From the NCBI RefSeq assembly GCF_055900595.2, contig NZ_CM148325.1: a stretch of 64,000 bases of DNA. The stretch is one strand, 5' to 3'. The position numbers and the translations under genes were made by a program. Of this stretch, positions 1-44,826 are shown one piece after another. The stretch's first letter is position 1, and the number at the start of each line of letters is the position of its first letter. The notes below the pieces were generated by a model. That model was not told where the DNA came from, ran no database searches, and saw nothing but the letters and a program-made list of their open reading frames with translations.

Positions 1-1
1 G

Positions 2-8242: not shown

Positions 8243-9820
8243 ATGACGGAAAACATTCATAAGCATCGCATCCTCATTCTGGACTTCGGTTCTCAGTACA
8301 CCCAACTGGTTGCGCGCCGCGTGCGTGAACTGGGTGTTTACTGCGAACTGTGGGCGTGGGATGTGACAGAAGCACAAATTCGTGACTTCAATCCAAGCGG
8401 CATTATTCTTTCCGGCGGCCCGGAAAGCACCACCGAAGAAAACAGCCCGCGTGCGCCGCAGTATGTCTTTGAAGCAGGCGTACCGGTATTCGGCGTTTGC
8501 TATGGTATGCAGACCATGGCAATGCAGTTGGGTGGTCATGTTGAAGCCTCTAACGAACGTGAATTTGGCTATGCGCAGGTTGAAGTCGTAAACGACAGCG
8601 CACTGGTTCGCGGTATCGAAGATGCGCTGACAGCAGACGGTAAACCTCTGCTCGATGTCTGGATGAGCCATGGCGATAAAGTTACCGCTATCCCGTCCGA
8701 CTTCATCACCGTAGCCAGCACCGAAAGCTGCCCGTTCGCCATCATGGCAAATGAAGAAAAACGCTTCTATGGCGTACAGTTCCACCCGGAAGTGACTCAT
8801 ACCCGCCAGGGGATGCGCATGCTGGAGCGTTTTGTGCGTGATATCTGCCAGTGTGAAGCCCTGTGGACGCCAGCGAAAATTATCGACGATGCAGTAGCCC
8901 GTATCCGCGAGCAGGTAGGCGACGATAAAGTGATCCTCGGCCTCTCTGGTGGCGTGGATTCCTCCGTGACTGCAATGCTGCTGCACCGCGCAATCGGCAA
9001 AAACCTGACTTGCGTATTCGTTGACAACGGCCTGCTGCGTCTCAACGAAGCAGAGCAGGTTCTGGATATGTTTGGCGATCACTTTGGTCTGAACATTGTT
9101 CACGTTCCGGCAGAAGATCGCTTCTTGTCAGCGCTGGCTGGTGAAAACGATCCGGAAGCAAAACGTAAAATCATCGGTCGCGTTTTCGTTGAAGTATTCG
9201 ATGAAGAAGCGCTGAAACTGGAAGATGTGAAGTGGCTGGCGCAGGGTACTATCTACCCTGATGTTATCGAATCTGCCGCGTCTGCAACCGGTAAAGCTCA
9301 CGTCATCAAATCTCACCATAACGTGGGCGGCCTGCCGAAAGAGATGAAGATGGGCCTGGTTGAACCGCTGAAAGAGCTGTTCAAAGACGAAGTGCGTAAA
9401 ATTGGTCTGGAGCTGGGCCTGCCGTACGACATGCTGTACCGTCACCCGTTCCCGGGACCAGGCCTTGGCGTTCGTGTGCTGGGCGAAGTGAAGAAAGAGT
9501 ACTGCGACCTGCTGCGCCGTGCTGATGCCATCTTCATTGAAGAACTGCGTAAAGCGGACCTGTACGACAAAGTTAGCCAGGCGTTTACCGTGTTCCTGCC
9601 GGTACGTTCTGTTGGCGTAATGGGCGATGGTCGTAAATACGACTGGGTTGTGTCTCTGCGTGCCGTCGAAACCATCGACTTTATGACCGCACACTGGGCG
9701 CATCTGCCGTACGATTTCCTTGGTCGCGTTTCCAACCGCATTATCAATGAAGTGAACGGTATTTCCCGCGTGGTGTATGACATCAGCGGCAAGCCACCGG
9801 CGACTATTGAGTGGGAATGA
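8243..9820 (+). CDS. guaA: GMP synthase (glutamine-hydrolysing)
   Basis: 525-aa [43 protein letters not shown] ... PPATIEWE; class I glutamine amidotransferase plus ATP-pyrophosphatase regions. Confidence 0.95.
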
Positions 9821-9822
9821 TT
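9809..9822. repeat. attL core (direct repeat GAGTGGGAATGATT overlapping the guaA stop codon)
   Basis: Exact 14-bp copy also at 44813-44826; the left copy supplies the last guaA codons and TGA stop. Confidence 0.55.
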
Positions 9823-9866
9823 CGTTAACGCTTTTCTGCGATTAACACCCATCGAAAATAATACTA

Positions 9867-9895
9867 ACCGCCTTGATTTACAGGCGGTTTTTTTA
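9867..9895 (+). terminator. Rho-independent terminator downstream of guaA (prophage-supplied)
   Basis: Hairpin accgcc-ttgatttac-aggcggt followed by a run of Ts. Confidence 0.6.
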
Positions 9896-9938
9896 TTTTC
9901 AGTCATTAATAACCATCAGTTACTATCTGTTGTTTTTA

Positions 9939-10026
9939 GCGGTAAATTTGACGGTATAAGAAATTTTTAGTCAGTGTTACACTCCATTTTACCGTCAGGT
10001 TTTAGCCAGCGGTGACGGTAAAATTT
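9939..10026. promoter_or_regulatory. Cluster of GACGGTA(A/T)A motifs: putative integrase arm-type binding sites
   Basis: gcggtaaa 9939-9946, gacggtata 9950-9958, inverted tttaccgtc 9988-9996, gacggtaaa 10014-10022, immediately upstream of int; the same motif occurs twice in the right arm (44730-44750). Confidence 0.4.
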
Positions 10027-10030
10027 CACA

Positions 10031-11245
10031 ATGGAGAGTGACCCGATGCTGACCGATACCAAACTGAAAAACCTCAAAGCGCGGGAAAAACTTTATAAAG
10101 TTGCAGACCGTGATGGGCTGTATGTAACCGTATCTCCCAAGGGATTGGTGACGTTTCGCTATGACTATCGAATCAATGGTCGTCGTGAAACGTTAACTAT
10201 TGGTCGCTATGGTGACGGTATTTCTCTGGCGCAGGCGCGCGAAAAATTAGTGGAAGCCAAAAAACGCGTAAATGCAGGAATATCGCCCGCTGGAGAGAAG
10301 CGTGACGGTAAAACAAAGCGAAAAGAAGAAAAGACACTCCACGATTTTACCGTCAGCTACATGAAACACACCCGGCTGGCGGACAGCACAAGGGCGATGA
10401 AGCAAAGCATTATCGACAGAGACATCACGCCAGTATGGGGGCGCAAGCTGCTGTCAGAGATAACCCCCTCTCTCCTACGTGAGTATTGCGACAAGATAAA
10501 AGCGCGTGGTGCGCCAGCGACGGCGATTCAGGTTCGCAATATCGTTAGTGCGGTATTTAAGTTCGCCGCGCTTCACGGCGACTATTACCCCAATCCTGCC
10601 GAAGAGGTTTTACCGGCTTCAATTGCGACATTCGAAGCGCGCGACAGGGCGCTCAAGCCAGAGGAGATAGGCTGGTTTTTCAATCAGCTTGAACAAACGG
10701 GTACATTACCCACCATCAAGCTGGCCATTAAATTGGTTTTATTAACGATGGTACGTAAAAGTGAACTGCTGAACGCTCCGTGGGGTGAGGTTAATTTTAA
10801 TGCCTGCCTTTGGACGATTGACGCCAGCCGGATGAAGGGATCACGGGATCATAATGTTTATCTGTCCCGGCAGGCACAGGACATTCTGATTGCCCTGAAA
10901 ATGTGCGCAGGAAGCAGTGATTGGGTTTTGCCTTCATGCAATCAGTCGTCGCATAAGACCATGTCGGCGGCGACCTTAAACCGGGTCATTAATCTTACGG
11001 TTAAGCAGGCGCAGGAACGGGGGATCAGGCTGGCGTCGTTTTCCGTTCACGATATGCGCCGAACGGCATCGACGTTATTGCATGAGGCGGGGTTTAATTC
11101 CGACTGGATAGAAAAATGCCTCGCGCACGAGGAAAGAAGCGTCAGAGCCGTTTATAACAAAGCGGAATACGCAGAGCAGCGCCGTGATATGTTGCAGCAG
11201 TGGGCGGATATGGTTGATGGGTGGATCAAGCAATACCGCCCGTAA
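10031..11245 (+). CDS. int: Tyrosine recombinase, P4-type phage integrase
   Basis: N-terminal arm-binding region DGLYVTVSPKGLVTFRYDYRINGRRETLTIGRYG and C-terminal catalytic HDMRRT ... AVYNKAEY (HxxR ... Y) typical of P4/CP4-57 integrases; true start may be the Met at about 10046. Confidence 0.9.
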   Translation: MESDPMLTDTKLKNLKAREKLYKVADRDGLYVTVSPKGLVTFRYDYRINGRRETLTIGRYGDGISLAQAREKLVEAKKRVNAGISPAGEKRDGKTKRKEEKTLHDFTVSYMKHTRLADSTRAMKQSIIDRDITPVWGRKLLSEITPSLLREYCDKIKARGAPATAIQVRNIVSAVFKFAALHGDYYPNPAEEVLPASIATFEARDRALKPEEIGWFFNQLEQTGTLPTIKLAIKLVLLTMVRKSELLNAPWGEVNFNACLWTIDASRMKGSRDHNVYLSRQAQDILIALKMCAGSSDWVLPSCNQSSHKTMSAATLNRVINLTVKQAQERGIRLASFSVHDMRRTASTLLHEAGFNSDWIEKCLAHEERSVRAVYNKAEYAEQRRDMLQQWADMVDGWIKQYRP

Positions 11246-11248
11246 GTA

Positions 11249-11503
11249 CTATGCGGGGATCTTGGTACCAGAGCGCTTTGGGACTTTGGCCAGATTTTTC
11301 TGTACCGCGTTATCAATATGGTGATGGTTATTTTCCTGCCGTGCTTTGAGCCAGCGTTCCACTTCCTCTTTGTCCCACGCGACGGCGCGCTTCGTTAGCG
11401 CAAAACGTTTGGGAAACAGGCCTTTTTGCTCCAACGCATAAATCGTACTTTCAGAGAGTGGCACCATCTGTAAAAGCACGTTTTTTCTAATGGCAATTTT
11501 CAT
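11249..11503 (-). CDS. alpA: AlpA/Vis-family excisionase-type transcriptional regulator
   Basis: Motif LSESTIYALEQKGLFPKRFALTKRAVAWDKEEVERWL matches the AlpA family; adjacent to int. Confidence 0.7.
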   Translation of the reverse strand: MKIAIRKNVLLQMVPLSESTIYALEQKGLFPKRFALTKRAVAWDKEEVERWLKARQENNHHHIDNAVQKNLAKVPKRSGTKIPA

Positions 11504-12314
11504 TGTTTATTCCTTTAATCCAAAGGCACTCAGTTCTGATAACAGATCCTTTTTTACCAGCAGCGGCAGATTGCTTTGTCTCTTTACGCCAGCCGGTTAG
11601 CAAATCGTTATACATTTCGGTGTCGTAGCCGCTGATAACCACGCTTCCTTGTAACCGGGTGACGGTCTCCAGTAAGCGCAGGTGGGCACCATCGTCCATT
11701 TCGTGGCGATAATATTTGTTAGTCAGATTACGGGTGCTATGAACATACGGCGGATCGACAAAATGCAGCGTGTCGGCGGCGTCATGATCCAGAATACACT
11801 GGATGGCATCGCGGTTTTCCACCAGAACCCCTTCAAAACGCTGACCAACGGCGGCCAGATTATCGGGCATACGGCTCCAGATGTGTTGGGCCGTTCCACT
11901 GGCGCGTTTAGTGTCCAGCCGAAAGCCGGTAGTGCCTTTAGTTGCCCCGGCAGAACCGAAGCCCATCGTGGCGCGAATCACTAAACGCCTTGCCTGTTCA
12001 ACAGAATTTTTCCCATAGCGATAGGCCGAAATAAACTCGGTGCGGGAATAGGGTGTCAGGCTGCAGGCTTCAACCAGTCTTTCGCGCAGTTGTGGGGTAC
12101 GAAGAACGGCGAACAGGTTAACGACGTCGCCATCCAGATCGTTGTAAACCTCGGCGTAGCTACGTGGTTTTCTGAGCAGTACGCTGGCTGCACCGCCGAA
12201 GGGTTCCACATAGCATCTGTGGGCCGGAAAGTGGCTAATGATCCACGGAGCTAGTCGCCACTTGCCGCCGTGGTAGCGGATTGCAGGGTGCTTAATCATC
12301 CAGTTTTTCTCCAC
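11487..12314 (-). CDS. DNA adenine (N6) methyltransferase, Dam family (copy 1)
   Basis: SAM-binding motif YVEPFGGAASVLL and catalytic DPPY (FVDPPYVHSTRN). Confidence 0.8.
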   Translation of the reverse strand: MEKNWMIKHPAIRYHGGKWRLAPWIISHFPAHRCYVEPFGGAASVLLRKPRSYAEVYNDLDGDVVNLFAVLRTPQLRERLVEACSLTPYSRTEFISAYRYGKNSVEQARRLVIRATMGFGSAGATKGTTGFRLDTKRASGTAQHIWSRMPDNLAAVGQRFEGVLVENRDAIQCILDHDAADTLHFVDPPYVHSTRNLTNKYYRHEMDDGAHLRLLETVTRLQGSVVISGYDTEMYNDLLTGWRKETKQSAAAGKKGSVIRTECLWIKGINNENCH

Positions 12315-12891
12315 GCCGTTCTACGTTCAGGTGTCGCCACTGCACCGCAATCCGTTTCATCACCGCATTCCCCTCTGGGATCACCTCCTGCGGCTCCTTC
12401 ATCAACATGACCCGCCCCCGAATAACGATCAGCGCTTGTTCCAGCAGGCCATAGTCCAGATAACAGAGATCGGGAATATCCAGTTGCCACACATAGCCAT
12501 TCCATGCTGAAAGTAGCACTTGCGCGGCGGCGCGTCCGCCGCTGGTTTCTGTGAGCGCGATTTTGGCAAGTGTATTGACGGCTGCGCCATATTCCTCTGG
12601 CGTGACGCGGAGTTTCTGCTGGCTGTTATCTTCTTTTGCCAGCGTTAATAATCCAATCGGGTGTAATACGCCCAGCTCTTCCATCTTTTCTTTCAATGTT
12701 GCAGCTGTATTCCATCCAATTCTGAATTTGCGCTGCAGGCGGCTGATACTGATAATGCCTTCCGCCTCGGCCAGTTCGACCGCTTTGGGATAGAGTTCAT
12801 TGAGCCGATATTCGTAATCAGCGAAGGGCGCACCGCTATTCTCTGGCAGGCCAGAGAGTGTTTGTGAATTATTTCCAGAGGATTTCATCAT
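12292..12891 (-). CDS. Hypothetical protein with FtsK-gamma-like winged helix
   Basis: Segment IISISRLQRKFRIGWNTAATLKEKMEELGVL resembles the FtsK gamma-domain consensus (S.S.lQR..rIGynRAarl.e.mE..G); remainder unrecognised. Confidence 0.45.
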   Translation of the reverse strand: MMKSSGNNSQTLSGLPENSGAPFADYEYRLNELYPKAVELAEAEGIISISRLQRKFRIGWNTAATLKEKMEELGVLHPIGLLTLAKEDNSQQKLRVTPEEYGAAVNTLAKIALTETSGGRAAAQVLLSAWNGYVWQLDIPDLCYLDYGLLEQALIVIRGRVMLMKEPQEVIPEGNAVMKRIAVQWRHLNVERRGEKLDD

Positions 12892-12901: not shown

Positions 12902-15559
12902 TTAACGTTGAAAAACCCAACACTTCACCGTCGCCGGGCGGCGCGGTGCGGCTGGGTAACGGCGGTTAAATTCAGCGTTGATGCCGCTGTTAACCGTTCT
13001 GACTTCAATAAACTTGTGGGTACGGCTGGTTTTTAGCACTCGCTTCAAATCGCTGATCGGCGGGATCTGCTGGCGGCGCTCGGTAGCCAGTTGAATAAAG
13101 TGGTTAAGGTTAACGGCGATAAGCTGTTCATCGCGCGAGTGGTTGAGCTGTGGTTCGTCGTCGCCATCGAGGAAGTCGAAAATATCCCAGAACTCCTGCA
13201 CCAGAGGATGGTCGGCGCTGATGGCCTGTTGGCGCTCCAGACTGAGGCGGATAAACATTTCTCTGGTCGCCTGTAGCTGCTCTTCCGTGACCGGAATAAC
13301 CAGCGCCAGCGCGTCGAGCAGCGCCATAAGCTGGGCGTGGTTTTTAATGATGCGGATATGGCGAATATCTGGGTGGGAGTGAAGTTGCTGCTCGTATAGC
13401 GGGATCTGACGGTTAACGCACTCCAGCACGGCCTGTTCCGCCAGCGCTGCCTTCAGCATAAAGCCGGAAAGCTGTTCTACCGGCAGGCGTTCGAGCTGCT
13501 CGGCAGCGACCTTGGTCTGAGTATTCTGGCCGCTGCGGTCGGTGTACAGGTGAATAATACGTTCCAGCACCGGGTTAGAGGCGCTAACATCGGCGTTTTG
13601 CGCAATCACAATCGCGCCCCGGAACGGCGGTTCATAGGTCTCGTTGCCGCTGTTACGCAGACCGCGAGAACGCACCGACCGCCCGTTATAGGCGGTTTTC
13701 AGCTCTTCCCAATCAAAGCCACGCTGCTTTGCCCCCTCCTGATTACGGTCACCCTCGATCAGCACCACCGGCATATTTGCTACCTGCGCAAAGTTGCGCG
13801 CGCGGGCGGCCAGCGTTGATTTAGACGGATCGAAACCTTCATAGTCGCGTCGGCCCAACAGTTTCCAGAGGAACTCTATCAGCGTGGTTTTACCGCTGCC
13901 GGGTTCGCCAACGATTTCCAGAAATGGAAAGCTCTTGTGCTTGTCGCGGATCTGTTCGGCAAACATCGTCCCAAACCAGTACGCCAGCGCCACAAACCCC
14001 TTTGCGCCAAACGCCTGCCAGAGTAGCTGGGGCCACTGGCTGTCCATCTGTTTTAAATTGTCGTTCAGCGTCAGGCTGACCGACTGGTTCAGGCTTTTAA
14101 GGCTAAGTTTGCCCATGTCGAAGAAGTCTTCTTCGTTGAGTGTGTACAGCCGACCATCGCGAACGGCCAGATCGTTGAACACGTAAGCGCGGTATTCTTT
14201 GCTGTAGCCGATAAAATCAGTGGTCTGGACAGTTTTGATTTTGGGAAGCTGCTTGAGCAGCAACTTATCTAACTGCTGACTGGTGCCGGTGAAGATGCCG
14301 CCCTGCGCGATATGCAGCAGGCGCTTTTTGAATTCTGAGCCGCTGGAAAGTTGGGAGCCGGTGAAGGTGTTTTTTATCGGTGGAGTGTCGTCGGGGAAGT
14401 TAATGCGAAAGTAATACCAGCTTTCGTCGGTAATGGTGTTGGCCTGATAGTAGAGGGCGGTCGGGTAGCAGTTGGCTATCTCAACAACGGCGGCTGACTC
14501 CTGTAGCGCTTTATGTTTGGCTTCTTCTTCGTCCAGCTCCTCTTTGCCGTTATACATCACGTTATCAAAGGCACGCATATAACGGTCAATATCCAGCTTG
14601 AACCAGTACAGGCGGCTGTCGAACTCGAAGTGAAACTCTTTGCGTTCGGTACGCTCATGCATCAGTAATGCTTTGGCATTCGGATTGGGAGCGATCAACA
14701 GTGAACCGTAGTAACGATATTTTTTAATCAGATCCGGGTTTAGCCGATCGCGCTGGTGCAAATCGTTCCAGTCCAGCTTGGTGCGGGAATAGGGCGTTTG
14801 TGCGGCGGTGGAAAGCCAGCCGTCGTCGCGGCTGCGTTTTACCCAGCGGCGGGTGTAATTCATGCCCGCTTTGTCGTTATCCAGCGCCCAGACCAGTAAA
14901 GGACGCTTTTTATCCACGAACAGCGCGGCCAGTTGGCTTAACGCCTGCGCCGGATAGTTGTTACAGGTCATCAGGGAAACGGCGGCAATGCCGTGGTGGT
15001 GCAGGGCGATAGCGTCAAAAATGCCCTCAACCAGCCAGATCTCCTGCTGTTCTTCCAGCTTAAGCGTTGGCAATTGCCACCATAGCCCGCTGTAAGCGCC
15101 GTGAAAATTGGCTTTGCGATCGCCGAAACGCTGTGGGCGGTCAACGATCCGCTCCCACCACACGCCGTCAGCCAGCGGGAAACGCACAGTGGCCGAGCCG
15201 AGATCGCGCCGTGCGTCATAGTAGTTCTCTTGAGCGTAACAGTTACGGAGCAGCGAAAGGTCAAAGCCGCGCATCTCGCGCAGGTAGGCATCGGCGGCGG
15301 CCTGTGGGTTTTCCGGGGTTGGGGGATATCTGTCTGACCAGCTTTCAAATAGATCCGGGTACACCTCTTTGATATGGATTTCGGCATTGCATTTATTCAG
15401 GCGACCGCAGCGCAGTACCCACGGGCTGATGGCGTAGGTGTACAGCTCTTTTTTCTGGCAGTCCGGGCAGACGCCCTGCCGCAGCCAGTCGCCCTGTTCT
15501 TTAAAGGAAAAATCGGCTAGCAGTCGCCGCGTAATTTCCTGATGAAGTTGTGGTTGCAT
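12902..15559 (-). CDS. Replicative primase-helicase (P4 alpha / HP1 Rep-like)
   Basis: N-terminal zinc-binding motif CPDCQKK ... CGRLNKC, TOPRIM-like EGIFDAIALHHHG and LDNDKAG (DxD), and Walker A GEPGSGKTTL. Confidence 0.75.
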   Translation of the reverse strand: MQPQLHQEITRRLLADFSFKEQGDWLRQGVCPDCQKKELYTYAISPWVLRCGRLNKCNAEIHIKEVYPDLFESWSDRYPPTPENPQAAADAYLREMRGFDLSLLRNCYAQENYYDARRDLGSATVRFPLADGVWWERIVDRPQRFGDRKANFHGAYSGLWWQLPTLKLEEQQEIWLVEGIFDAIALHHHGIAAVSLMTCNNYPAQALSQLAALFVDKKRPLLVWALDNDKAGMNYTRRWVKRSRDDGWLSTAAQTPYSRTKLDWNDLHQRDRLNPDLIKKYRYYGSLLIAPNPNAKALLMHERTERKEFHFEFDSRLYWFKLDIDRYMRAFDNVMYNGKEELDEEEAKHKALQESAAVVEIANCYPTALYYQANTITDESWYYFRINFPDDTPPIKNTFTGSQLSSGSEFKKRLLHIAQGGIFTGTSQQLDKLLLKQLPKIKTVQTTDFIGYSKEYRAYVFNDLAVRDGRLYTLNEEDFFDMGKLSLKSLNQSVSLTLNDNLKQMDSQWPQLLWQAFGAKGFVALAYWFGTMFAEQIRDKHKSFPFLEIVGEPGSGKTTLIEFLWKLLGRRDYEGFDPSKSTLAARARNFAQVANMPVVLIEGDRNQEGAKQRGFDWEELKTAYNGRSVRSRGLRNSGNETYEPPFRGAIVIAQNADVSASNPVLERIIHLYTDRSGQNTQTKVAAEQLERLPVEQLSGFMLKAALAEQAVLECVNRQIPLYEQQLHSHPDIRHIRIIKNHAQLMALLDALALVIPVTEEQLQATREMFIRLSLERQQAISADHPLVQEFWDIFDFLDGDDEPQLNHSRDEQLIAVNLNHFIQLATERRQQIPPISDLKRVLKTSRTHKFIEVRTVNSGINAEFNRRYPAAPRRPATVKCWVFQR

Positions 15560-15647: not shown

Positions 15648-15896
15648 TTACGCGATTTTCTGCTTTTGCAGAAATTGCCCGCGTGTGGATAGCGGTATGT
15701 GTATCTTAGGATTCGGGCAACCGCTGGGTACTACCGTTCCCATCACGGTCTCCATCGCGATAAATGAAAACGAACAGTTAACGTTCTTGCACTGGTAATA
15801 GAGCTTACGTACCAGCGGTGACATATATTCGCTGCTGCGAATTATCGCCTTACCGTCGCAGTGTGGGCATTTCATCATGTCCGATCTCCTTACCAC
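15648..15896 (-). CDS. ogr: Ogr/Delta-family zinc-finger late transcription activator
   Basis: CPHCDGKA ... YYQCKNVNCSFSF matches the Ogr/Delta C-x2-C ... C-x4-C zinc finger. Confidence 0.8.
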   Translation of the reverse strand: MVRRSDMMKCPHCDGKAIIRSSEYMSPLVRKLYYQCKNVNCSFSFIAMETVMGTVVPSGCPNPKIHIPLSTRGQFLQKQKIA

Positions 15897-16201: not shown

Positions 16202-16540
16202 ATGAAAGAATTTGGCATCCGTTTGAAGGAAGAACGTATCCGACTTGGCCTTGATCAAGACGGCTTTGGACAACTTGGGGGCGTGAAGAAAAACGCACAA
16301 AGTAACTATGAGAATGGACTGCGCAAGCCGGACAGTGACTATCTTGCTGGCATAGCGGCAGCGGGAGTTGATGTTCTGTATGTTCTAACAGGCAACCGCA
16401 CGCCTGTGGCTACGTTGTCCAGTAAAGAGAGTGTGTTGGTGGAGAACTATCGTTCTGCTACGCCAGAACACCAGTCCACCCTTGACACGGTTAGCGCTGC
16501 GCTTGCGCAACCGGGAGTAGGGAAAGCAGCTAAGGGATAA
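16202..16540 (+). CDS. HTH XRE/Cro-C1-type regulator, probable prophage immunity repressor
   Basis: N-terminal HTH FGIRLKEERIRLGLDQDGFGQLGGVKKNAQSNYENGLRKP; divergent from the early/late regulators; GC content like the phage backbone. Confidence 0.65.
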   Translation: MKEFGIRLKEERIRLGLDQDGFGQLGGVKKNAQSNYENGLRKPDSDYLAGIAAAGVDVLYVLTGNRTPVATLSSKESVLVENYRSATPEHQSTLDTVSAALAQPGVGKAAKG

Positions 16541-17153: not shown

Positions 17154-17167
17154 GATTGTGAGGTTAT

Positions 17168-18316: not shown

Positions 18317-18318
18317 GG

Positions 18319-18957: not shown

Positions 18958-19001
18958 CGGATGATAATTATTTTGAGCGAAAAGGGATTTTCATTAATAC
19001 G

Positions 19002-36359: not shown

Positions 36360-36520
36360 GGCGCACCTCCAGCGGTTTGCAGGAGACGAACACCAGCGGG
36401 AAACCCGCCAGCAGGCCGCGAGCCTCTGTCTCTGTTGTCGCCAGTACGGATACCAGACGCAGTGGCTGGATCTCGCGCAGCAGGCGGTTGGAACGGGCGT
36501 TCAGGAAGGTGTAGAGCTTA
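36353..36520 (-). CDS. Small hypothetical protein (about 55 aa), not in ORF track
   Basis: Hand translation of the minus strand gives MPKLYTFLNARSNRLLREIQPLRLVSVLATTETEARGLLAGFPLVFVSCKPLEVRHGA between two flanking small genes. Confidence 0.3.
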
Positions 36521-36757
36521 GGCATGGTTCACCTCCTCTACCGGGGTGCTACGTGGGGGATTGAACGACTGAGCGATAACGCTCAGTGCCTGCTTACCTT
36601 CGGGATGCGCAAGACGGTAGTAAGTTAACAGGACTTGCTCCTGTGGGCTGAGATCGTCCCACGTGAGAGTTGTGTTACTATTAGCGGTAGCCATAGCATT
36701 ACCTCGATTAATGTTGTGGTTAGATGCCTTGGCAGTGTTCGCGCACTGTCGGGGCAT
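36518..36757 (-). CDS. Small hypothetical protein (accessory)
   Basis: 79-aa ORF; likely start at MATANSNTTLTWDDLSPQEQ. Confidence 0.35.
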   Translation of the reverse strand: MPRQCANTAKASNHNINRGNAMATANSNTTLTWDDLSPQEQVLLTYYRLAHPEGKQALSVIAQSFNPPRSTPVEEVNHA

Positions 36758-36836
36758 TGTTATTTATGTCATGTGATAGTAATGTGTCATCACACAGTAC
36801 TACATTAACCTGAGTGTGATTTAGGTGTCAATACAC

Positions 36837-37004
36837 ATGAATGAAAGAAGAGGAAATCCTCCGTTTCAGTTTCGACTCGATCCTGAACTGAGAAACGCGA
36901 TGGAAGAAGCTAAAAAGCAAGATGGTGATGAATCACTGGCTGCGTGGATTAAGCGAATTATCAGAAAAGAGCTTCAGTCACGGGGTATAGAACCAAAAGA
37001 TTAG
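36837..37004 (+). CDS. Ribbon-helix-helix (CopG/Arc-like) small DNA-binding protein, not in ORF track
   Basis: Hand translation MNERRGNPPFQFRLDPELRNAMEEAKKQDGDESLAAWIKRIIRKELQSRGIEPKD; beta-strand FRLDPEL followed by two helices is typical of RHH. Confidence 0.4.
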   Translation: MNERRGNPPFQFRLDPELRNAMEEAKKQDGDESLAAWIKRIIRKELQSRGIEPKD

Positions 37005-37050
37005 CAGATAGGTATATACTTTGAATAAAGAGTATTAGAGGTAAAAAATA

Positions 37051-37239
37051 ATGGCGAAGAATAGCAGTCCTGCCAGCCGATACGGTATCAAGGTCGTAAA
37101 AAGAGACAGTATGAGCGGGCAGTTTGTACCCGTCGAAATGAAGCTGGACGGCCCGGAAGGTGAGCGTGTGATTAAAAAGTCGGCAGAGCGTATTTATGCC
37201 AGACACAACAAAGTCATTAAGGCGCTGGCTAACCGATGA
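37051..37239 (+). CDS. Putative antitoxin partner of the Doc-family toxin
   Basis: 62-aa ORF whose stop overlaps the Doc start by 4 nt. Confidence 0.4.
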   Translation: MAKNSSPASRYGIKVVKRDSMSGQFVPVEMKLDGPEGERVIKKSAERIYARHNKVIKALANR

Positions 37240-37613
37240 TTGATGCACATTTGGTGATTGGAATTCACGACTTTATTCTTGCTCATGAGCCGGGATTGGT
37301 TGGTTATCAGGATGCTGGCCGGGTCGAGGCAACACTGGCACGGGTGGATAACCGTATTCTGTATGAGCAGATGAATGATATTTTCCAGATCGCCGCATCT
37401 TATGCGGTTGCCATCGCCAGAGGGCACGTTTTTGCTGATGCCAACAAGCGAACGGCACTGGTGACGGCGTTGACATACCTTGATATGCAGGGTGTGAACC
37501 TCAAGCGAACACAAAAGCTGGAAGATATTATGGTGGATGTGGCTGAGGGAACGCTAAATCTGGATGATTTAGCCGATATTTTCTATACCCTTAGTGATGT
37601 AAATGCTTCCTGA
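37236..37613 (+). CDS. doc: Doc/Fic-family toxin
   Basis: Contains the Fic/Doc signature HVFADANKRTALV (HxFx(D/N)(A/G)NKR). Confidence 0.75.
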   Translation: MIDAHLVIGIHDFILAHEPGLVGYQDAGRVEATLARVDNRILYEQMNDIFQIAASYAVAIARGHVFADANKRTALVTALTYLDMQGVNLKRTQKLEDIMVDVAEGTLNLDDLADIFYTLSDVNAS

Positions 37614-37645
37614 CGTTACAGCCCGACAGATCGGGCTGTTTTTAA

Positions 37646-37882
37646 TTATGCCGCCTCAATACCCGCGTTGGTTAACATATAGTGGCCCCAGTGGTTTTTT
37701 TTCAGGTAACCGGCCAGTTCCATCTGCGTCACAATAAATTCAGCGTTAACCATTTCTATACCTGCGTAGTCGGCCAGATCGCGCAGCGGCCATGTGCTGC
37801 GAACGCCGACGCTAACTATGGTGTCTCTGATGCGGCGAGCGGTATCGGTCATTGGGCGGGTTCTGGCTGCCTGAATAGTCAT
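37646..37882 (-). CDS. Small putative winged-helix DNA-binding protein (PapI/FaeA-like?)
   Basis: 78 aa; C-terminal DLADYAGIEMVNAEFIVTQMELAGYLKK...GHYMLT loosely resembles PapI/FaeA-type winged-helix regulators; weak call. Confidence 0.3.
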   Translation of the reverse strand: MTIQAARTRPMTDTARRIRDTIVSVGVRSTWPLRDLADYAGIEMVNAEFIVTQMELAGYLKKNHWGHYMLTNAGIEAA

Positions 37883-37998
37883 GGTATTTTCCCCTGTAGA
37901 TTCTTTCTGTTAGGTCAGACACTAACTCTGGTGGGGAAGGGGCATCCAGCGTTCAGATGAGGCGATACGGTGATGCGCATCGCATATCCGTACTCTTT

Positions 37999-38598
37999 TT
38001 ATACCAGAACAAACGTACTGCGCGGCTTGCCCAGAATATCCCGCACGGCGAAGCGGGCATCGCGCGCCAGATCGTCGGCGGTGCTTTCCTTCTGTTCCGC
38101 CAGTTTGCTGCCGTGGGCGGTGGCATCAAAGTTACGGTAGCGTTCCAGCAGGTTTGCGTGCGTCAGGCTGTACACCGCGTAGCGGTAGCGGTGCAGGTTA
38201 ACGCTTTCGCCGTCCAGCCGTTCGGTAGTAGTTTCCACAATGCCGGTTGTGCCACGGCTTTCCTGCTCCAGCCGCCATTCCCGCAGGTCGTCGTTCACGC
38301 TGGCCAGCGCAATCAGCAGCGCCTCGCGCAGCCGTTCGTTGGTGATGGTGCTGTCCAGCCGTTGGGTTGCACGCAGATGTTGCGTATCGATATTGGGAAA
38401 GAAAGGGTGGTTGCTGATAACCAGCCCCGGCAGACTGGCGGCGGGGGCAACCTGAATAAAGCTCATTATATTCTCCCTGTTCGGCGGTGGACGGCGGGCG
38501 TTGCAGTGGTAAAACCACGCGCGGCCAGCCGTGCCGCCGGTCGTGAGGGTCTCACTCGGTAGGCTGACTGTTGCGAATTTGTCGCTCCAGTTGCTCAA
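37999..38598 (-). CDS. L: Capsid completion protein L
   Basis: P2 order after M; true start may be the internal Met at about 38466 (MSFIQVAPAASLPG). Confidence 0.7.
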   Translation of the reverse strand: MSNWSDKFATVSLPSETLTTGGTAGRAWFYHCNARRPPPNRENIMSFIQVAPAASLPGLVISNHPFFPNIDTQHLRATQRLDSTITNERLREALLIALASVNDDLREWRLEQESRGTTGIVETTTERLDGESVNLHRYRYAVYSLTHANLLERYRNFDATAHGSKLAEQKESTADDLARDARFAVRDILGKPRSTFVLV

Positions 38599-39205
38599 TC
38601 AGCTTTTTCACGCCGACGTTCTCATCCAGTTGTAGCGCGCGCTGGAACTGCGCCAGCGCCTCCTGCGGCTGGCTTTCGCTGTGTGCCAGCCCCAATGCCT
38701 TGTGCAGGCGAGCGCGAACCTGATCCGGCATGTCCTGATCGGCTAACAGCCCGGCAAAGGCCAGCAGGCTGTCCAGCGCCGCAAAGGTACCGGCGGTAAG
38801 CTGTTTCAGGGTGGTGTCGGCGACCTCTTCAGCCACCATGCAGGCGGTCTGCCGCTGGTACTGATCCGGCGTTACCCAGCCGTGTTTCAGGGCGTGTTCC
38901 GCCATGGGGTAGGCAGCGGGAAAGTCGCCGGTATCCAGCGTCCAGAGCAGCACCGTCATAAACACATCGTCCTGCTGTTGGCTGTCGGCAGCCAGAACGC
39001 CGCTTACCCATGGCTGGTAATCGGGCAGCAGTTCACCCTTAACCTCGATTTTGCGTTCAATGGACTGGATCGCTTTCAGGCGGCGTTTATCGGTTGCCAG
39101 CTTTGCCAGCATCAGTTCATAGCCGCTGGCGTAGGTCTGATTTTCCTGTTGATTTGCGGCCTGCGCCTGATAGCGCAGCAGGTGGCGGCGGGCAGGCGTC
39201 ATCAT
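38552..39205 (-). CDS. M: Terminase small (endonuclease) subunit M
   Basis: 217-aa ORF between N and L in P2 order. Confidence 0.75.
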   Translation of the reverse strand: MMTPARRHLLRYQAQAANQQENQTYASGYELMLAKLATDKRRLKAIQSIERKIEVKGELLPDYQPWVSGVLAADSQQQDDVFMTVLLWTLDTGDFPAAYPMAEHALKHGWVTPDQYQRQTACMVAEEVADTTLKQLTAGTFAALDSLLAFAGLLADQDMPDQVRARLHKALGLAHSESQPQEALAQFQRALQLDENVGVKKLIEQLERQIRNSQPTE

Positions 39206-40221
39206 GCGTCTTTATCCTCAAACTTGATGTTTTCAAACAGGCAACCGCAGCCGAAGTCTTCCACCACAAAGGCATCGTTGGAAGACTCGAAGTTCTCTAC
39301 CCGGTCACGTTTGGGGTTATCAATAATGGCGCGGCGGCGGGTGCCTTTCTGGACATAGATAGACAGGTTACTGAAGGCGGTGACCAGAATGGTGTTGTGC
39401 GGGAAACCCGGCACGCGCACGGCAGGGCGACTGCCGATGGTTTTCTGGCTGACCAGAATCTGCCCCGCCAGTTTTTCGCTGTTCTCATTGTGCTGGTTGA
39501 GGATCGGGAAGTATTTGTCGTGCAGGACGCCACGGCCACAAATGGCGACCAGATCTGCGCCGTCGACATGCCATTCGTCAATCAGGTTTTCTTCGCCGTC
39601 ATTGACCATGGCGTCCAGATTCTCATAGTCGCCGCCTTTGCCAATGATGATTTTGCCGGAACCTTCCACACCTTCGTTCATGACGCGTTCCGGGGCGTGA
39701 TCGCGATACTGCTGCAGCCAGCCTTTGTTAACGTCCTGCAGAAGGGGGTAACGCTGGAAGTCGGTCTGGGCTGCAACGAGGATACCGTTGAAGCCAATCA
39801 GGATGCGGTCTAATCCCTGTCGCCGGGTGATGCTGTCGCGCACGCGGATCTGAAAATCTGGGTGGGCGGCCCATGCGTCCAGTTTGGCGTATTTCAGCGC
39901 GGTATCGTAGTTGGTTTTTTCGCAGCGGTAGCGGTTAGTCGTCATTGACGTGGGGTCGACGGGTTCACGTTCACGCTGACTGGTATCGGTACGACTGGCC
40001 GTGGGGCGATCAATGCCGATACCGACTTTTTCACCTTCCTGATCCACCACTTCATGGACGTTGATTTCGGTCAGGAATTCTACGGACGCCTGAATTTTGG
40101 TTTCCAGCGTCTGCTGTACGGAAGGTTCTACCGTGAATTCGACGGCGGCGCTCTGGACACCGGACAGCCCGGCGACGGTTTCAACGTAAGCGTTGTATTT
40201 TAAGCGGGTTTCGTTACGCAT
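39202..40221 (-). CDS. N: Major capsid protein N
   Basis: Extensive similarity to P2 gpN as recalled (MRNETRLKYNAY ... PAVRVPGFP ... NLSIY ... DRVENFES). Confidence 0.9.
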   Translation of the reverse strand: MRNETRLKYNAYVETVAGLSGVQSAAVEFTVEPSVQQTLETKIQASVEFLTEINVHEVVDQEGEKVGIGIDRPTASRTDTSQREREPVDPTSMTTNRYRCEKTNYDTALKYAKLDAWAAHPDFQIRVRDSITRRQGLDRILIGFNGILVAAQTDFQRYPLLQDVNKGWLQQYRDHAPERVMNEGVEGSGKIIIGKGGDYENLDAMVNDGEENLIDEWHVDGADLVAICGRGVLHDKYFPILNQHNENSEKLAGQILVSQKTIGSRPAVRVPGFPHNTILVTAFSNLSIYVQKGTRRRAIIDNPKRDRVENFESSNDAFVVEDFGCGCLFENIKFEDKDA

Positions 40222-40231
40222 CGGGGGTTCC

Positions 40232-41059
40232 TTAACAGTCGGTTTTCAGGTCGGTGTTGCCACCGGTGGCAGGCTGGCGCGGCGGTGTGGCCGGTTGTTT
40301 TGCAAGCTGAGTTTTCAGCGTGGAATAATCGGTCTGTAGCTGCTGATGCTGCGTTTGCAGCTCAGACAGCTCAGCGCGAATTTGGTCGACCTGTTCGCTA
40401 CAGAACGTCGCTACTTCCTCCACCGCCAGATGCACGTCGTCCCGTTGCTGGTCGTCGTGGTTCTGCTTTTTACTTAACAGCGCCTTGATGCGGGTAAACA
40501 GAGATTCGCCGCTGCTTTCCTCCACTTCTTCAAACTCCAGTTCAATCTCTTCTGCCACGCTGAAAATGTTCTCCGGCGAGCGTTTACGCGCCGCCAGCGG
40601 GTTGCTTTGCGCGCTGGCGCAGAAGGAGAGCATTTCGGTGCCGAGGCTGGCCGGATCGTCGGTGACCGCCAGCCCGACCAGATAGGCTTTGCCCGTGTCG
40701 GCAAATTTCGGATTGACTTCCACCGAGGTATAAACCTTCTGCCCTTTGCGGTTCATTTCGACCAGCGAATCCGTTGGGGCCAGACGCGCCAGCAGCGCCA
40801 GTTTGCCTTTCAGGGGACCGTCTTCGGCGATCTCTTCTTTCTTCACCATCGCCACGTCGCCGTAGCGCTGGAACGGGCCGTCCGGCAGGATGCCTTTCAG
40901 GTGCTCCAGATTAATGCGCGCGCCGTACACTTTTGGGCTGTATGTATCGGCCATTTGCTCGATCCACTGGCGTTCAATCGTGCGCTTGTCGCAGGTTGCG
41001 CCTTCTACGGCGATACGCACCCATTTAGAGAGCAGTTTTTTCTTTGGCTTTTTGTCCAT
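40232..41059 (-). CDS. O: Capsid scaffolding protein O
   Basis: 275-aa ORF divergent from the terminase gene, acidic C-terminal region; P2 order. Confidence 0.8.
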   Translation of the reverse strand: MDKKPKKKLLSKWVRIAVEGATCDKRTIERQWIEQMADTYSPKVYGARINLEHLKGILPDGPFQRYGDVAMVKKEEIAEDGPLKGKLALLARLAPTDSLVEMNRKGQKVYTSVEVNPKFADTGKAYLVGLAVTDDPASLGTEMLSFCASAQSNPLAARKRSPENIFSVAEEIELEFEEVEESSGESLFTRIKALLSKKQNHDDQQRDDVHLAVEEVATFCSEQVDQIRAELSELQTQHQQLQTDYSTLKTQLAKQPATPPRQPATGGNTDLKTDC

Positions 41060-41214: not shown

Positions 41215-42999
41215 ATGCCGCCAGACATCGAAAAACATCTGCTTGCCCTTCAGGACGAAGATCCACGCCGTAAAGCCCGCTATCTGTACTGGCAGGGTTT
41301 TCGCATTGCGCGGATCGCTGAACTATTGGGGGTGAAAGTTACCACGCTGCATAGCTGGAAGCGGCGCGATGGCTGGGACGAATCCGCCCCGCTGGAGCGG
41401 GTGACGGCGGTGACCGAAGCGCGGCTGATCCAGCTCACGGTGAAGGAAAATAAGGAGGGAAAGGATTTTAAGGAGATCGACCTGCTCTGGCGGCAGATGG
41501 AGCGCGGGGCAAGGGTTGAACGCTATCAGCAGGGGGGCAATGAGGTCGACCTGAACCCTGCTCTTGCGAAGCGTAACGCCGGGCCGCGCAGACAGCCGGA
41601 AACCAACCATATCAGCGAGGAGCAGGCGGAGAAGCTGAAACAGTTATTTCTGGACGGACTGTATCCGCACCAGAAACACTGGTACCGCGCCGGGCTGGAA
41701 CACCGTATCCGCGATATCAACAAGTCGCGCCAGATTGGGGCGACGATGTTCTTCGGGCGGGAAGGATTTATGGATGCGGTGGAGAGCGGGCGCAACCAGA
41801 TCTTTCTCTCGGCCTCCAAAGCGCAGGCGCACCAGTTCCGCCAGTACATTGTCGATTTTGCTCGTGAGGCGGATGTTGAGCTGAAGGGCGAAGTCATTCA
41901 CTTGCCGCATAATGATAGCCGGATGTATTTTCTCGGCACCAATGCCCGCACCGCCCAGACCTATCATGGCAACCTGTATCTGGATGAATACTTCTGGATA
42001 CACCGCTTTTTGGAACTGCGCCGTAACGCGGCGGGGATGGCCAGCCAGAAACGCTGGCGGCAGACCTACTTTTCCACACCGTCCAGCATTACCCACGAAG
42101 CCTATAAGTTCTGGACAGGGCAACTGTTCAACAAGGGCAGGCCGAAGAGCGAACAGATTCGACTGGATATCAGCCATCGGGCGCTGGCGGCGGGGCGTCT
42201 GTGTGAAGACGGCCAGTGGCGGCAAATCGTCACCGTTGAGGATGCCATCAATCAGGGTTATGACCTGTTCGACCTTGAGCAACTCAGGCTGGAGAACTCG
42301 CCGGAAGAGTTCGCCAACCTGTTTATGTGCCAGTTTATCGACGATACCGCATCGGTATTCCCACTAAGCATGTTGCAGGGTTGCATGGTCGATAGCTGGG
42401 AAGTCTGGGACGACTACAAGCCGTTTGCCCTGCGTCCGCTCGGCGAACGCTCGGTGTGGGTGGGGTACGATCCCGCATTAAGCGGTGACAGCGCCGGGTG
42501 CGTGATGGTCGCGCCGCCGGTCATTGAGGGCGGCAAGTTTCGGGTAATTGAAAAGCACCAGTGGCACGGGATGGACTTCGCGGCGCAGGCGGAAAATATC
42601 CGCAAAATTACCGAGCGCTATAACGTGACTTACATCGGTATTGACGTGACCGGCATCGGCCACGGCGTGCATCAACTGGTGAAACAGTTCTTCCCGGCAG
42701 TGCAGGCATTCTCTTATTCCCCAGAAGTGAAACAGCGTCTGGTGCTGAAAACGCTGGACGTTGTCCGTAAACGCCGACTGGAGTTTGACGCCGGATGGAC
42801 GGATCTGGCGCAGGCGTTTATGGCAATTCGCAAAACCCTGACTCCGTCCGGGCGTCAGGTGACCTTCGAGGCCAGCCGTTCGGAAGAAGTCTCCCACGCG
42901 GATCTGGCATGGGCGTGTATGCACGCCATTATCAATGAACCACTGGAAAGCTCCGGCGGCGCGAACAGCGGGCGGGGCTTAATTAAGGTGTACGGATGA
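41215..42999 (+). CDS. P: Terminase large (ATPase) subunit P
   Basis: 594-aa ORF with the terminase ATPase region (RQIGATMFFGREGF ... FLSASKAQA); divergent from O as in P2. Confidence 0.9.
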   Translation: MPPDIEKHLLALQDEDPRRKARYLYWQGFRIARIAELLGVKVTTLHSWKRRDGWDESAPLERVTAVTEARLIQLTVKENKEGKDFKEIDLLWRQMERGARVERYQQGGNEVDLNPALAKRNAGPRRQPETNHISEEQAEKLKQLFLDGLYPHQKHWYRAGLEHRIRDINKSRQIGATMFFGREGFMDAVESGRNQIFLSASKAQAHQFRQYIVDFAREADVELKGEVIHLPHNDSRMYFLGTNARTAQTYHGNLYLDEYFWIHRFLELRRNAAGMASQKRWRQTYFSTPSSITHEAYKFWTGQLFNKGRPKSEQIRLDISHRALAAGRLCEDGQWRQIVTVEDAINQGYDLFDLEQLRLENSPEEFANLFMCQFIDDTASVFPLSMLQGCMVDSWEVWDDYKPFALRPLGERSVWVGYDPALSGDSAGCVMVAPPVIEGGKFRVIEKHQWHGMDFAAQAENIRKITERYNVTYIGIDVTGIGHGVHQLVKQFFPAVQAFSYSPEVKQRLVLKTLDVVRKRRLEFDAGWTDLAQAFMAIRKTLTPSGRQVTFEASRSEEVSHADLAWACMHAIINEPLESSGGANSGRGLIKVYG

Positions 43000-43976
43000 A
43001 TAACTCAATGGCTTTCACCTTCGGTGAACCTGAAGCCCTGCTGGACAGGCGGGAAATACTGAACTATCTGGAGTGCGTGGACTTTGGCAAATGGTATGCG
43101 CCGCCGGTGGATTTTAATTCGCTGGCGCTGTCGTTCCGCGCTTCGGCGCATCATACCAGCCCGATCTGCGTGAAGCGCAACGTGCTGGTTGGTACCTTCA
43201 TACCTCATCCGTTGTTGACCCGGCAGGCGTTCAGCCGCCTTGCGCTGGACTATCTGGTATTCGGCAATGCCTATCTGGAGCGGCAGGATAACCGGCTGGG
43301 CCAGCCGTTAACGCTGGTGCCTGCGCTGGCGAAGTATGTCCGGCGCGGCAAGGCGCTGGACAGCTATTTCTTTGTTCAGCCCGGTAAAGTGGATCATGAG
43401 TTTGCGTCGGGCAGTATCGGCCACCTGCTGGAGCCGGATATCAATCAGGAAATCTACGGCCTGTCGGAATACCTCTCTGCGCTGAACGCGGCATGGCTGG
43501 ATAACTCCGCCACGCTGTTTCGCCGTCGTTACTACAAGAACGGCAGTCATGCCGGTTTCATCCTCTACCTGAGCGACCCGGCCCACAACGAGGCGGATAT
43601 TGGGGCGTTACAGGAAGCGCTAGCGAACAGCCGTGGCCCCGGCAACTTCCGCAATCTGCTGATGTATCTGCCGAACGGCAAGCCAGACAGCGTAAAGGTT
43701 ATCCCGATTGGCGAGGTGGCGGCGAAAGATAACTTCTCCGATATCAAGAGTGTCAGCCGTGACGACCAGTTAGCTGCGCACCGGGTACCACCTGCGCTCA
43801 TGGGCGTGGTACCGAGTAACGCCGGTGGCTTTGGTGATGCCATCAAAGCGGCGAAGGTATTCAACTGCAATGAGATCGAGCCGCTACAGGAACGGTTCAA
43901 GGAGCTGAACGACTGGCTGGGGCTGGAGGTTATTCGCTTCAAAAAGTACCGCCTTGCCGACGACGATTCAGAGTAA
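42996..43976 (+). CDS. Q: Portal protein Q
   Basis: 326-aa ORF overlapping the P stop by 4 nt; P2 P-Q operon arrangement. Confidence 0.85.
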   Translation: MNNSMAFTFGEPEALLDRREILNYLECVDFGKWYAPPVDFNSLALSFRASAHHTSPICVKRNVLVGTFIPHPLLTRQAFSRLALDYLVFGNAYLERQDNRLGQPLTLVPALAKYVRRGKALDSYFFVQPGKVDHEFASGSIGHLLEPDINQEIYGLSEYLSALNAAWLDNSATLFRRRYYKNGSHAGFILYLSDPAHNEADIGALQEALANSRGPGNFRNLLMYLPNGKPDSVKVIPIGEVAAKDNFSDIKSVSRDDQLAAHRVPPALMGVVPSNAGGFGDAIKAAKVFNCNEIEPLQERFKELNDWLGLEVIRFKKYRLADDDSE

Positions 43977-44011
43977 CCCCACCAACGACCAGCTCACTAT
44001 CAGAGCCACCA

Positions 44012-44035
44012 TGCGCCATTCAGCCCGCTTCCTGC
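44012..44035 (+). terminator. Rho-independent terminator after Q
   Basis: agcccgc-ttcct-gcgggct hairpin followed by TTTTT. Confidence 0.5.
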
Positions 44036-44295
44036 GGGCTTTTTTACGCCTTCTCACCGCCAGAATCCCCGGTCAGCACCGCCAGCGCGCGGTTGTGACC
44101 CCGCCACGCCTGCGCAGTAAATAGATCGCTTTTTTTGCACTGGTGCGTAAGCGTCGGAGCGGGCCATAACGGGAGGGCGTGGTCGGGTTGCAGTTGCAGC
44201 AGAATCATGCGGATTTATACGCCCTGTGTATGCGCCAGAGACGATCGGGAGGGCAATGCCACGATCCTTTCGGTATTTTTGGATCGCCTGTCGGG

Positions 44296-44580
44296 AAAAG
44301 GTAACCTCAGTAATTAGCAGTAAAAATAATGCTTATTCTATTGTTTATAAAAGAGAAATTTGGTTACCCCTAAAAGGTAATCTGAGGTAACCCAAAAGGT
44401 AACCTGTTTTATATTTTCATATAAATCATGATGTTACAAATTAGAAGACATCACTATTATAAAAGGTAACCTGATTACGCTTTGGTTACCAAAAGATTAC
44501 CTTTCTCTGTTTTTGAAAAATCCTTTTTATTCATTAAGTTATTTTGATTTTTCGTTGCAGGTTACTAAGGTTACCTTTTT
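44296..44580. repeat. Iteron-like array of about 9 copies of AAAAGGTAACC (both orientations)
   Basis: Copies at about 44296, 44362, 44373, 44385, 44395, 44461, 44484, 44491 and 44569, in an AT-rich non-coding region between the cos-proximal end and attR. Confidence 0.5.
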
Positions 44581-44728
44581 CCGAAGTCCCCACGGACTTT
44601 GGTATATATAGATAGGTTAAAAAGTAGCCGTTATGTTTGCCAGCTATTTACTTCCCATTCTTCCACTGGCCAGCATGTTAATATGCCCGGTAATGATAAC
44701 TAGTTGCCATTGGGTTACTTTCTTCTGT

Positions 44729-44755
44729 GGACGGTAAAACTGACGGTAAATTGGG
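44729..44755. promoter_or_regulatory. Tandem GACGGTAAA motifs: putative integrase arm-type sites (right arm)
   Basis: gacggtaaa at 44730-44738 and 44742-44750, the same motif as beside int at the left end. Confidence 0.4.
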
Positions 44756-44812
44756 TTGTGGGTCTCGATTTAGATTAGTAAAATCAAGTGATTAAGTCGA
44801 CTGTAGATAATC

Positions 44813-44826
44813 GAGTGGGAATGATT
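44813..44826. repeat. attR core (direct repeat GAGTGGGAATGATT)
   Basis: Exact copy of 9809-9822; followed by what looks like the displaced native guaA terminator. Confidence 0.55.

Follow-up and report, generated by a model that had tools for sequence, protein, structure and literature searches.

What is the 35-kb block of DNA that separates guaA from yfgI in the 64,000-nucleotide stretch analyzed here (contig NZ_CM148325.1 of NCBI RefSeq assembly GCF_055900595.2; the whole stretch is called the window below), and how can it lie at the very end of a protein-coding gene and leave that gene intact? The original prediction read the block as a prophage that had integrated into guaA at its 3′ end and was bounded by a 14-bp direct repeat. 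According to our analysis, positions 9823-44826 are very probably a temperate P2-family (Peduoviridae) myovirus prophage of 35,004 bp, whose genome is laid out like that of phiCTX and which entered by site-specific integration at guaA. The insert (35,004 bp with one core copy counted) has a G+C content of 53.1%, compared with 51.3% in its flanks. Sister prophages with about 96% identity occupy the same site with the same cores in three complete E. coli genomes (L725, GMF054, and CEC15), i.e., the lineage occurs in 3 of the 5,426 complete E. coli genomes. The insertion is a known kind of event at a known site, and the element belongs to the epsilon15/phiV10-type guaA integration system. It resolves no open question and would not surprise a specialist; its practical value is annotation, as the exact ends of the 35.0-kb prophage are fixed and guaA proves undamaged. 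The boundaries are defined by the following features:

8243..9820, plus strand: guaA (GMP synthase), an intact open reading frame (ORF) of 525 aa, annotated as guaA in matching E. coli genomes
9809..9822, plus strand: attL core GAGTGGGAATGATT, preceded by host-type ATT; E. coli homology stops at 9822
44813..44826, plus strand: attR core GAGTGGGAATGATT, preceded by phage-type ATC; E. coli homology is back from 44803-44813

When the window was searched for the repeat GAGTGGGAATGATT and one mismatch was tolerated, exactly two hits were obtained, 9809-9822 and 44813-44826, both on the plus strand; a third, internal att core was not found in the window at this threshold. The chance expectation in the window is 0.01, and two matches were obtained in 0 of 100 shuffles. 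The suggestion that the repeat is a crossover core overlapping the guaA stop is borne out by the left copy, which spells GAG TGG GAA TGA, the final three codons and the stop of the 525-aa ORF. Between the right copy and the end of yfgI (44918-45457, minus strand) there are 91 bp. The cores of attL and attR agree perfectly (14/14), and overall 16 of 17 positions are identical, the lone T/C difference being that between ATT-core and ATC-core.

A comparison with empty guaA-yfgI sites, which had been proposed as a check, places the junction at the repeat. The left-flank query (window 8000-12000) matched 5,425 of the 5,426 complete E. coli genomes, and in nearly every match sampled the alignment breaks at query base 1823, corresponding to window position 9822. 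With a right-flank query (43000-47000), the match restarts at query base 1804-1814, corresponding to 44803-44813. These breaks coincide with the only two copies of the repeat, which bounds the insert. A junction elsewhere was to have refuted the original prediction, but among the empty-site genomes compared none was seen outside the 14-bp core. The empty site of K-12 (attB) is ...ACCATTGAGTGGGAATGATTTGATCCCTG... and reads ATTGAGTGGGAATGATT across the guaA stop. In a three-way alignment of attL, attR, and K-12, attB runs ...ACC ATT GAG TGG GAA TGA TT|TGATCCCTG..., while attL consists of the host ATT-core followed by phage CGTTAACG, and attR of the phage ATC-core followed by host TGATCCCTG. Since the T/C difference is host-type at attL and phage-type at attR, strand exchange would be placed within the 14 identical bases. 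The DNA outside the insert is colinear with K-12 (97.2% identity for 44810-64000, 93.5% for 5247-9822), and for the left flank the best match among complete E. coli genomes reaches 97.5% identity.

Taken alone, so short a repeat might also have arisen by chance or through a transposase that duplicated its target site. We consider the probability of this explanation negligible in view of the low chance expectation and the single copy in empty sites. Moreover, the repeat equals the published attP/attB core of homologous integrases, and the ORF searches did not detect a transposase. The empty-site and homolog comparisons refute both of these origins. A tRNA-linked site is likewise ruled out because neither Rfam (gathering thresholds) nor ARAGORN found an RNA gene in the window.

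The original prediction had placed an integrase and AlpA directly inside the left repeat, and both genes do adjoin attL; motifs that resemble integrase-binding sites lie near both ends of the insert:

10046..11245, plus strand (ORF opens at 10031): int, tyrosine integrase of the epsilon15/phiV10 type (phrog_1, Pfam, alignment)
11249..11503, minus strand: AlpA-family small DNA-binding protein (Pfam PF05930, E 9.4e-13; PHROG "excisionase and transcriptional regulator")
44730 and 44742 (44730..44750), plus strand: two tandem P arm-type sites GACGGTAAA, aligned with the tandem sites of epsilon15
9950 (plus strand), 9988-9996 (inverted), and 10014 (plus strand): P′ arm-type motifs GACGGTA(A/T)A (motif search and epsilon15 alignment)

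The integrase, which likely starts at 10046 according to the L725 annotation, contains the Pfam domains Arm-DNA-bind_3 (PF13356), Phage_int_M (PF22022), and Phage_integrase (PF00589). Aligned with the integrases of epsilon15 and TL-2011b, it has all catalytic residues conserved (R242, K269, H340, R343, H366, and Y375). The protein is identical to the L725 copy, and its closest phage relatives are those of the podophages SPN1S, epsilon15, Tyrion, vB_EcoP_ZX5, and TL-2011b (60-62% identity over 98% of the length). A degraded int, combined with a lack of excision products, was to have refuted the prediction, but the gene is of full length with its catalytic residues present. A homolog of the epsilon15/phiV10 integrase with an Arm-DNA-binding N-terminus and an intact catalytic domain is encoded next to attL. 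Its AlpA-like neighbor is likely the excisionase or directionality factor, as judged from its family.

The attP site was reconstructed by joining window 44300-44826 to 9823-10040 and matches epsilon15 feature by feature when the two are aligned. The tandem GACGGTAAA sites are located 70-85 bp 5′ of the attP core. On the other side, the motif at 9950 is GACGGTATA and that at 10014 is GACGGTAAA, and more copies of the arm-type motif occur within int (10214, 10304, and 10346). Arm-type GTGACGGTAT-like sites thus flank the core, and a terminator lies between core and int; the arm sites on both sides are putative integrase-binding sites. In the epsilon15 record, the core is found at locus coordinates 1297-1310 and int starts at 1501, with an annotated rho-independent terminator (1357-1386) and GTGACGGTAT integrase-binding sites flanking the core and within int. 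Among integrase relatives in IMG/VR, GAGTGGGAAT lies 204-308 nt upstream of the match in 18 of the 18 cases with at least 204 nt of upstream sequence. The sequence ATTGAGTGGGAATGATT is common to attP and the guaA stop region in 16 of 17 positions, including 14 of 14 in the core. Published data on vB_EcoP_ZX5 identify attgagtgggaatgatt as its attP, 190 bp 5′ of int, and also as attB at the guaA 3′ end, with the junctions verified by PCR and Sanger sequencing; according to the same paper, attgagtgggaatgatt had previously been proven to be the attP of phiV10 and epsilon15 (PMC9782041).

The module therefore resembles that of epsilon15, phiV10, and vB_EcoP_ZX5 (Uetakevirus) in its attB, its integrase domains, and its core (16/17 bases). 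The epsilon15-type attP has the same order of elements, with tandem arm sites, a core about 190-210 bp before int, a terminator, and arm sites before and in int. In contrast, the rest of the genome is unrelated: the element described here is a contractile-tailed member of the P2 family with a candidate cos, whereas the epsilon15 group consists of podophages. Furthermore, position 3 of its attP core is C rather than T, and the neighbor of int is an AlpA-family gene while epsilon15 int has other neighbors.

In the mechanism that we propose, the tyrosine integrase would recombine the phage attP core ATCGAGTGGGAATGATT with bacterial attB ATTGAGTGGGAATGATT at the guaA stop. Strand exchange would occur inside the 14 identical bases, and guaA would keep its exact coding sequence. 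Excision would need Int and the AlpA-like protein and would restore attB and attP, with attP GATAATCGAGTGGGAATGATTCGTTAACG and attB ...ATTGAGTGGGAATGATTTGATCC... as the expected products.

What, then, changes for guaA? The insertion leaves the coding sequence of guaA as it was, since attP and attB have one and the same core; in the window and in K-12, the encoded protein ends alike (...PPATIEW E stop). The proposal that attP supplies a replacement 3′ end for guaA accordingly holds for the shared core and a new terminator, but no codon is altered. Two hairpins are relevant:

9866..9896, plus strand: phage-borne intrinsic terminator, stem 9866-9889 followed by T7 (scan and fold)
about 44850..44880, bidirectional: native guaA/yfgI hairpin, about 44850-44875 followed by T6 (fold)

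The first had been predicted as a new phage terminator at 9867-9895, and both the terminator scan and folding recover the hairpin (-14.9 kcal/mol, z about -4.5), which lies about 44 nt 3′ of the core. The second had been proposed, at 44853-44879, as the original guaA terminator displaced by about 35 kb. It indeed folds into a hairpin of -17.8 kcal/mol on the plus strand (z -5.8) and -20.7 kcal/mol on the minus strand, located 27 nt after the guaA stop in the empty site of K-12; in the window it stays with yfgI. The terminator scanner missed this hairpin because the maximal stem absorbs part of the T-run, and folding reveals it. Judging by its position, the phage hairpin likely ends the guaBA transcript and shields int from read-through, while the native bidirectional terminator would remain with yfgI. 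A terminator after the core is also present in epsilon15 and in a genomic island of E. coli E105. Cassettes that target guaA thus seem to include a terminator as a conserved component. Elements of three otherwise unrelated types each supply, with their homologous int-attP cassettes, a terminator of their own just past the guaA stop, a tidy case of an integration module that leaves the host operon functional.

How often is this site used? The original prediction considered integration into a protein-coding 3′ end to be less common than integration into a tRNA gene. While this is true in general, the guaA site itself is well known (PMC9782041; PMC9376610), and the guaA 3′ end is an established hotspot for several element types. 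A 601-bp empty-site probe from K-12 is uninterrupted in 4,567 of 5,425 genomes. About 858 genomes (16%) have no uninterrupted junction, and in the split matches listed the break falls at probe positions 285-309, in the region of the core (292-305). Three occupied genomes were sampled and differ in their contents. E105 carries an island with an integrase (57% identical), a LuxR-family regulator, and a RepA-family helicase, together with the same 17-bp core and its own terminator. E2386 shows a prophage end with tail-fiber, holin, endolysin, and spanin genes beside attR, as found upstream of the epsilon15 attP. In TB06052, a DUF262 gene pair without an integrase stands alone at the site. The GIsul2 island is reported to integrate at GAGTGGGA in the guaA 3′ end, with both excision and integration shown experimentally (PMC9376610). 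Among guaA-associated islands, the E105 island thus has the same core, and the GIsul2 sequence lies inside this core. The guaA attB is used by at least three kinds of inserts, namely epsilon15-like podophages, GIsul2-like islands, and a P2/phiCTX-like myophage. Since epsilon15-like podophages and GIsul2-like islands use an int-attP cassette of this type, unrelated mobile elements have a targeting module for the site in common. The literature was also searched for P2-like prophages at guaA, with no result.

The shared module leaves the question of which kind of element it has been joined to. The prediction of a prophage is supported by a full set of head, tail, lysis, and packaging genes (PHROG):

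12902..15559, minus strand: toprim primase (replication protein) of the phiCTX/RSY1 type, 885 aa (phrog_1139, 1262 bits)
15648..15896, minus strand: Ogr/Delta-like late activator (phrog_603; PGAP names in sister prophages)
16202..16540, plus strand: repressor-like helix-turn-helix gene, divergent from ogr (phrog_8/phrog_4)
19578..26186, minus strand: tail genes D, U, T (tape measure), E/E′, FII (tube), and FI (sheath) (PHROG, PGAP names)
26205..26963, minus strand: second Dam-like methylase (PHROG)
26960..32241, minus strand: tail fiber and assembly proteins, baseplate I, J, W, and V (PHROG)
33016..35924, minus strand: tail completion S and R, spanin, endolysin, two holins, and gpX (PHROG)
37999..41059, minus strand: head genes L (completion), M (small terminase), N (P2-family major capsid), and O (scaffold) (PHROG)
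41215..43976, plus strand: P (large terminase) and Q (portal) (PHROG)
about 44022..44045, plus strand: terminator after Q, equivalent to P2 tQ (terminator scan; P2 annotation)
44092..44110, minus strand: candidate cos (19 nt) GGCGTGGCGGGGTCACAAC, aligned with P2 cosL GGCGAGGCGGGGAAAGCAC and its flank

The order of modules is that of P2-type Peduoviridae, with Q and P divergent from O N M L, followed by X, lysis genes, R S, V W J I H, FI FII E T U D, and ogr, and alignment with P2 cosL places a P2-type candidate cos next to Q. The candidate cos is identical in L725 and lies about 700 bp from the attP core, which puts attP near one end of the virion DNA, as in phiCTX. At the level of individual proteins and nucleotides, the similarity to cultured phages is limited. 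The primase shares 57-58% identity with its counterparts in Ralstonia RSY1-like phages and has further matches in Pseudomonas phages; for the capsid, identity to P2-like phages of Burkholderia reaches 58% at most. Megablast of the initial 24 kb of the prophage against cultured phages gave just short matches in the tail sheath region, with about 73% identity and a coverage of no more than 5%. Nucleotide similarity at genus level was accordingly found neither to Citexvirus nor to another named genus of the Peduoviridae.

Like phiCTX (Citexvirus) and Ralstonia RSA1/RSY1, the prophage combines a P2-type order of head, tail, and lysis genes with a large toprim primase that replaces P2 A/B, and phiCTX orf37 is the equivalent of its primase gene. 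The phiCTX plan runs from cos through Q, P, the head and tail genes, D, the regulators, and the primase to int and attP, and repeats separate attP from cos. The phiCTX attP lies about 650 bp from cos, and int and attP are found here within about 700 bp of the candidate cos. In phiCTX, int precedes attP, whereas here attP precedes int, the target is guaA, and the host is Escherichia. phiCTX targets a tRNA gene. The similarities to P2 (Peduovirus) include the structural gene set and its order, the ogr-type activator, a cos by Q with GGCG(A/T)GGCGGGG, and tQ. However, the integrase is unrelated in target and attP is located elsewhere in the genome. In P2, attP lies between ogr and int, and locI and similar sites are used. 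None of the searches run on the insert matched a P2-type A, B, cox, old, or tin gene. The size of the insert (35.0 kb) is close to those of phiCTX (35.6 kb) and P2 (33.6 kb).

Repeats of the AAAGGTAACC type occur about 9-11 times, in either orientation, in an AT-rich region (44296..44580) that lies between the candidate cos and the P arm. Within these 285 bp lie 9 of the 26 near-matches to AAAGGTAACC in the entire window. In phiCTX, R repeats and IHF sites are annotated in an equivalent position. The cluster might act as an origin or as a recognition site for packaging, or it might be an architectural element.

Two other classes of mobile elements were considered and rejected. A P4-like satellite would be small (about 10-12 kb) and free of structural genes, whereas the 35-kb insert has its own capsid, tail, terminase, and lysis genes. 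GIsul2-type islands share the site at the guaA 3′ end and the combination of int and alpA, but they carry replication, transfer, and resistance genes (repA/repC, transfer/mobilization, resG) and no virion genes. The insert is a full phage with a complete virion and lysis set, and just the int-alpA-att module is shared. PHROG searches of the insert ORFs gave no match to RepA or to transfer or mobilization genes.

Alternatively, the insert might be a tandem composite in which an integrase-bearing island lies beside an unrelated prophage. Tandem occupancy of the site does occur, as the DUF262 pair that stands alone in TB06052 is also found past the GMF054 prophage (locus coordinates 47875-49259), between the end of the portal gene and the expected position of yfgI. 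For the window, a composite is nevertheless very unlikely. Just two core copies are present (up to one mismatch allowed), yfgI follows directly after attR, and the 35.0-kb size is near those of phiCTX and P2. Furthermore, the order int-alpA-primase-ogr-repressor-tail-head-cos-attP fits a single phiCTX genome.

Given a single prophage, is it still active? We lean toward an element that is still able to excise and to make particles: the att cores are perfect, int is intact, every essential ORF is of full length, and the candidate cos is conserved. A few observations weigh against this view. The excised attP junction (P arm, core, and P′ arm) was not found in IMG/VR with a 29-mer or in the JGI metagenomes with a 24-mer, and a shorter pattern of core and P′ arm led to two metagenome contigs that are both integrated attL forms. 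In addition, a frameshift in one cargo gene points to some decay or to a sequencing error, and the arm sites, the terminator roles, and the excisionase role of AlpA are deduced from homology and position. P2 itself is not known to be SOS-inducible. These observations are in part those expected from a cryptic prophage that entered as described but is now fixed in place and no longer excises or makes particles: a split cargo gene, no free or circular attP in the viral and metagenome collections searched, and a lineage restricted to 3 of 5,426 genomes. We regard this as a serious but rather unlikely alternative. Both cores are perfect, and the integrase is of full length with its catalytic residues kept and the same protein as in L725. 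The lengths of structural, lysis, and packaging ORFs match the sister annotations, which carry no pseudogene flags, and the candidate cos is conserved. Moreover, the sole lesion affects a non-essential cargo gene at an A-run and could be a sequencing error.

The remaining question is what distinguishes the prophage from its sisters. A metagenome contig is 99.9% identical to window 9415-13742 and spans attL; the attL junction was not found in the GTDB species-representative genomes. The variation among sister prophages concerns cargo and defense-like genes:

11487..12314, minus strand: Dam-like DNA methyltransferase (phrog_56; PADLOC MTase_II)
12292..12891, minus strand: 199-aa protein (phrog_6694)
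16581..19583, plus strand: cargo block of a DUF6037 protein, a nucleoid-associated protein (NAP), and a 418-aa protein, beside the repressor-like gene
17168..18316, plus strand: NAP of the YejK/NA37 type (Pfam PF04245, E 6e-45)
18319..19583, plus strand: 418-aa partner protein, hydrophobic in its C-terminal region and split into two ORFs in the window
32348..32943, minus strand: HicB-like antitoxin and toxin (HicAB-like pair; phrog_9151, phrog_8887) at a variable locus
36039..37960, mixed strands: small ORFs at a variable locus, including a Doc-like toxin (37236..37613, plus strand; phrog_577)

The segment 11509-12887 is mostly missing from the sister prophages, which makes the cargo at 11487-12891 specific to the window. 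The loci of the first Dam-like methylase, the HicAB-like pair, and the Doc-like toxin differ among the three sister prophages, and the HicAB-like locus holds a different gene in L725 and GMF054. The methylase at 26205-26963 is carried by sister prophages too. At variable cargo loci, L725 has an Abi protein and a RelE/ParE pair instead.

The cargo block beside the repressor-like gene corresponds to locus coordinates 19727-22730 in GMF054 and 19715-21801 in L725. In GMF054, the 418-aa gene is intact, whereas in the window a 1-nt deletion in an A-run near 18943 yields ORFs of 212 and 193 aa; just three further substitutions separate the two copies over 1.26 kb. The split reflects either a genuine frameshift or a sequencing error in the homopolymer. 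L725 encodes an NAP and a "GTP pyrophosphokinase" at the same locus. A defense system termed "PANGU" has been described in which type I consists of an NAP and toxSAS and type II of an NAP and a transmembrane effector (bioRxiv 10.64898/2026.04.06.716658). By their architecture, the cassettes in the window and GMF054 resemble type II and that in L725 resembles type I. PADLOC gave no match for the NAP cassette, the NCBIfam anti-phage matches (DS1_1/DS1_2) were below the cut-off, and a Pfam search with the 418-aa partner protein had no match.

Taken together, these observations might be explained jointly, although we offer this combination with some reserve and rate it somewhat below even odds. 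The prophage would belong to an active, uncultured lineage of phiCTX-like peduoviruses of Escherichia that gained the guaA cassette as a whole. This cassette would comprise arm sites, core, replacement terminator, and int of the podophage/island type. Selection might have favored the terminator, which would preserve the termination of guaBA and the insulation of int in any element that has the cassette, while the locus beside the repressor gene would swap type I- and type II-like PANGU cassettes among sister prophages.

Beyond the prophage, window 1-5200 contains the 3′ part of a very large gene for an "adhesion domain-containing protein" upstream of xseA. This segment is not present in K-12, where yfgJ and der lie past xseA. 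In GMF054, the adhesion-domain gene is preceded by sinH and a SinI-family gene.

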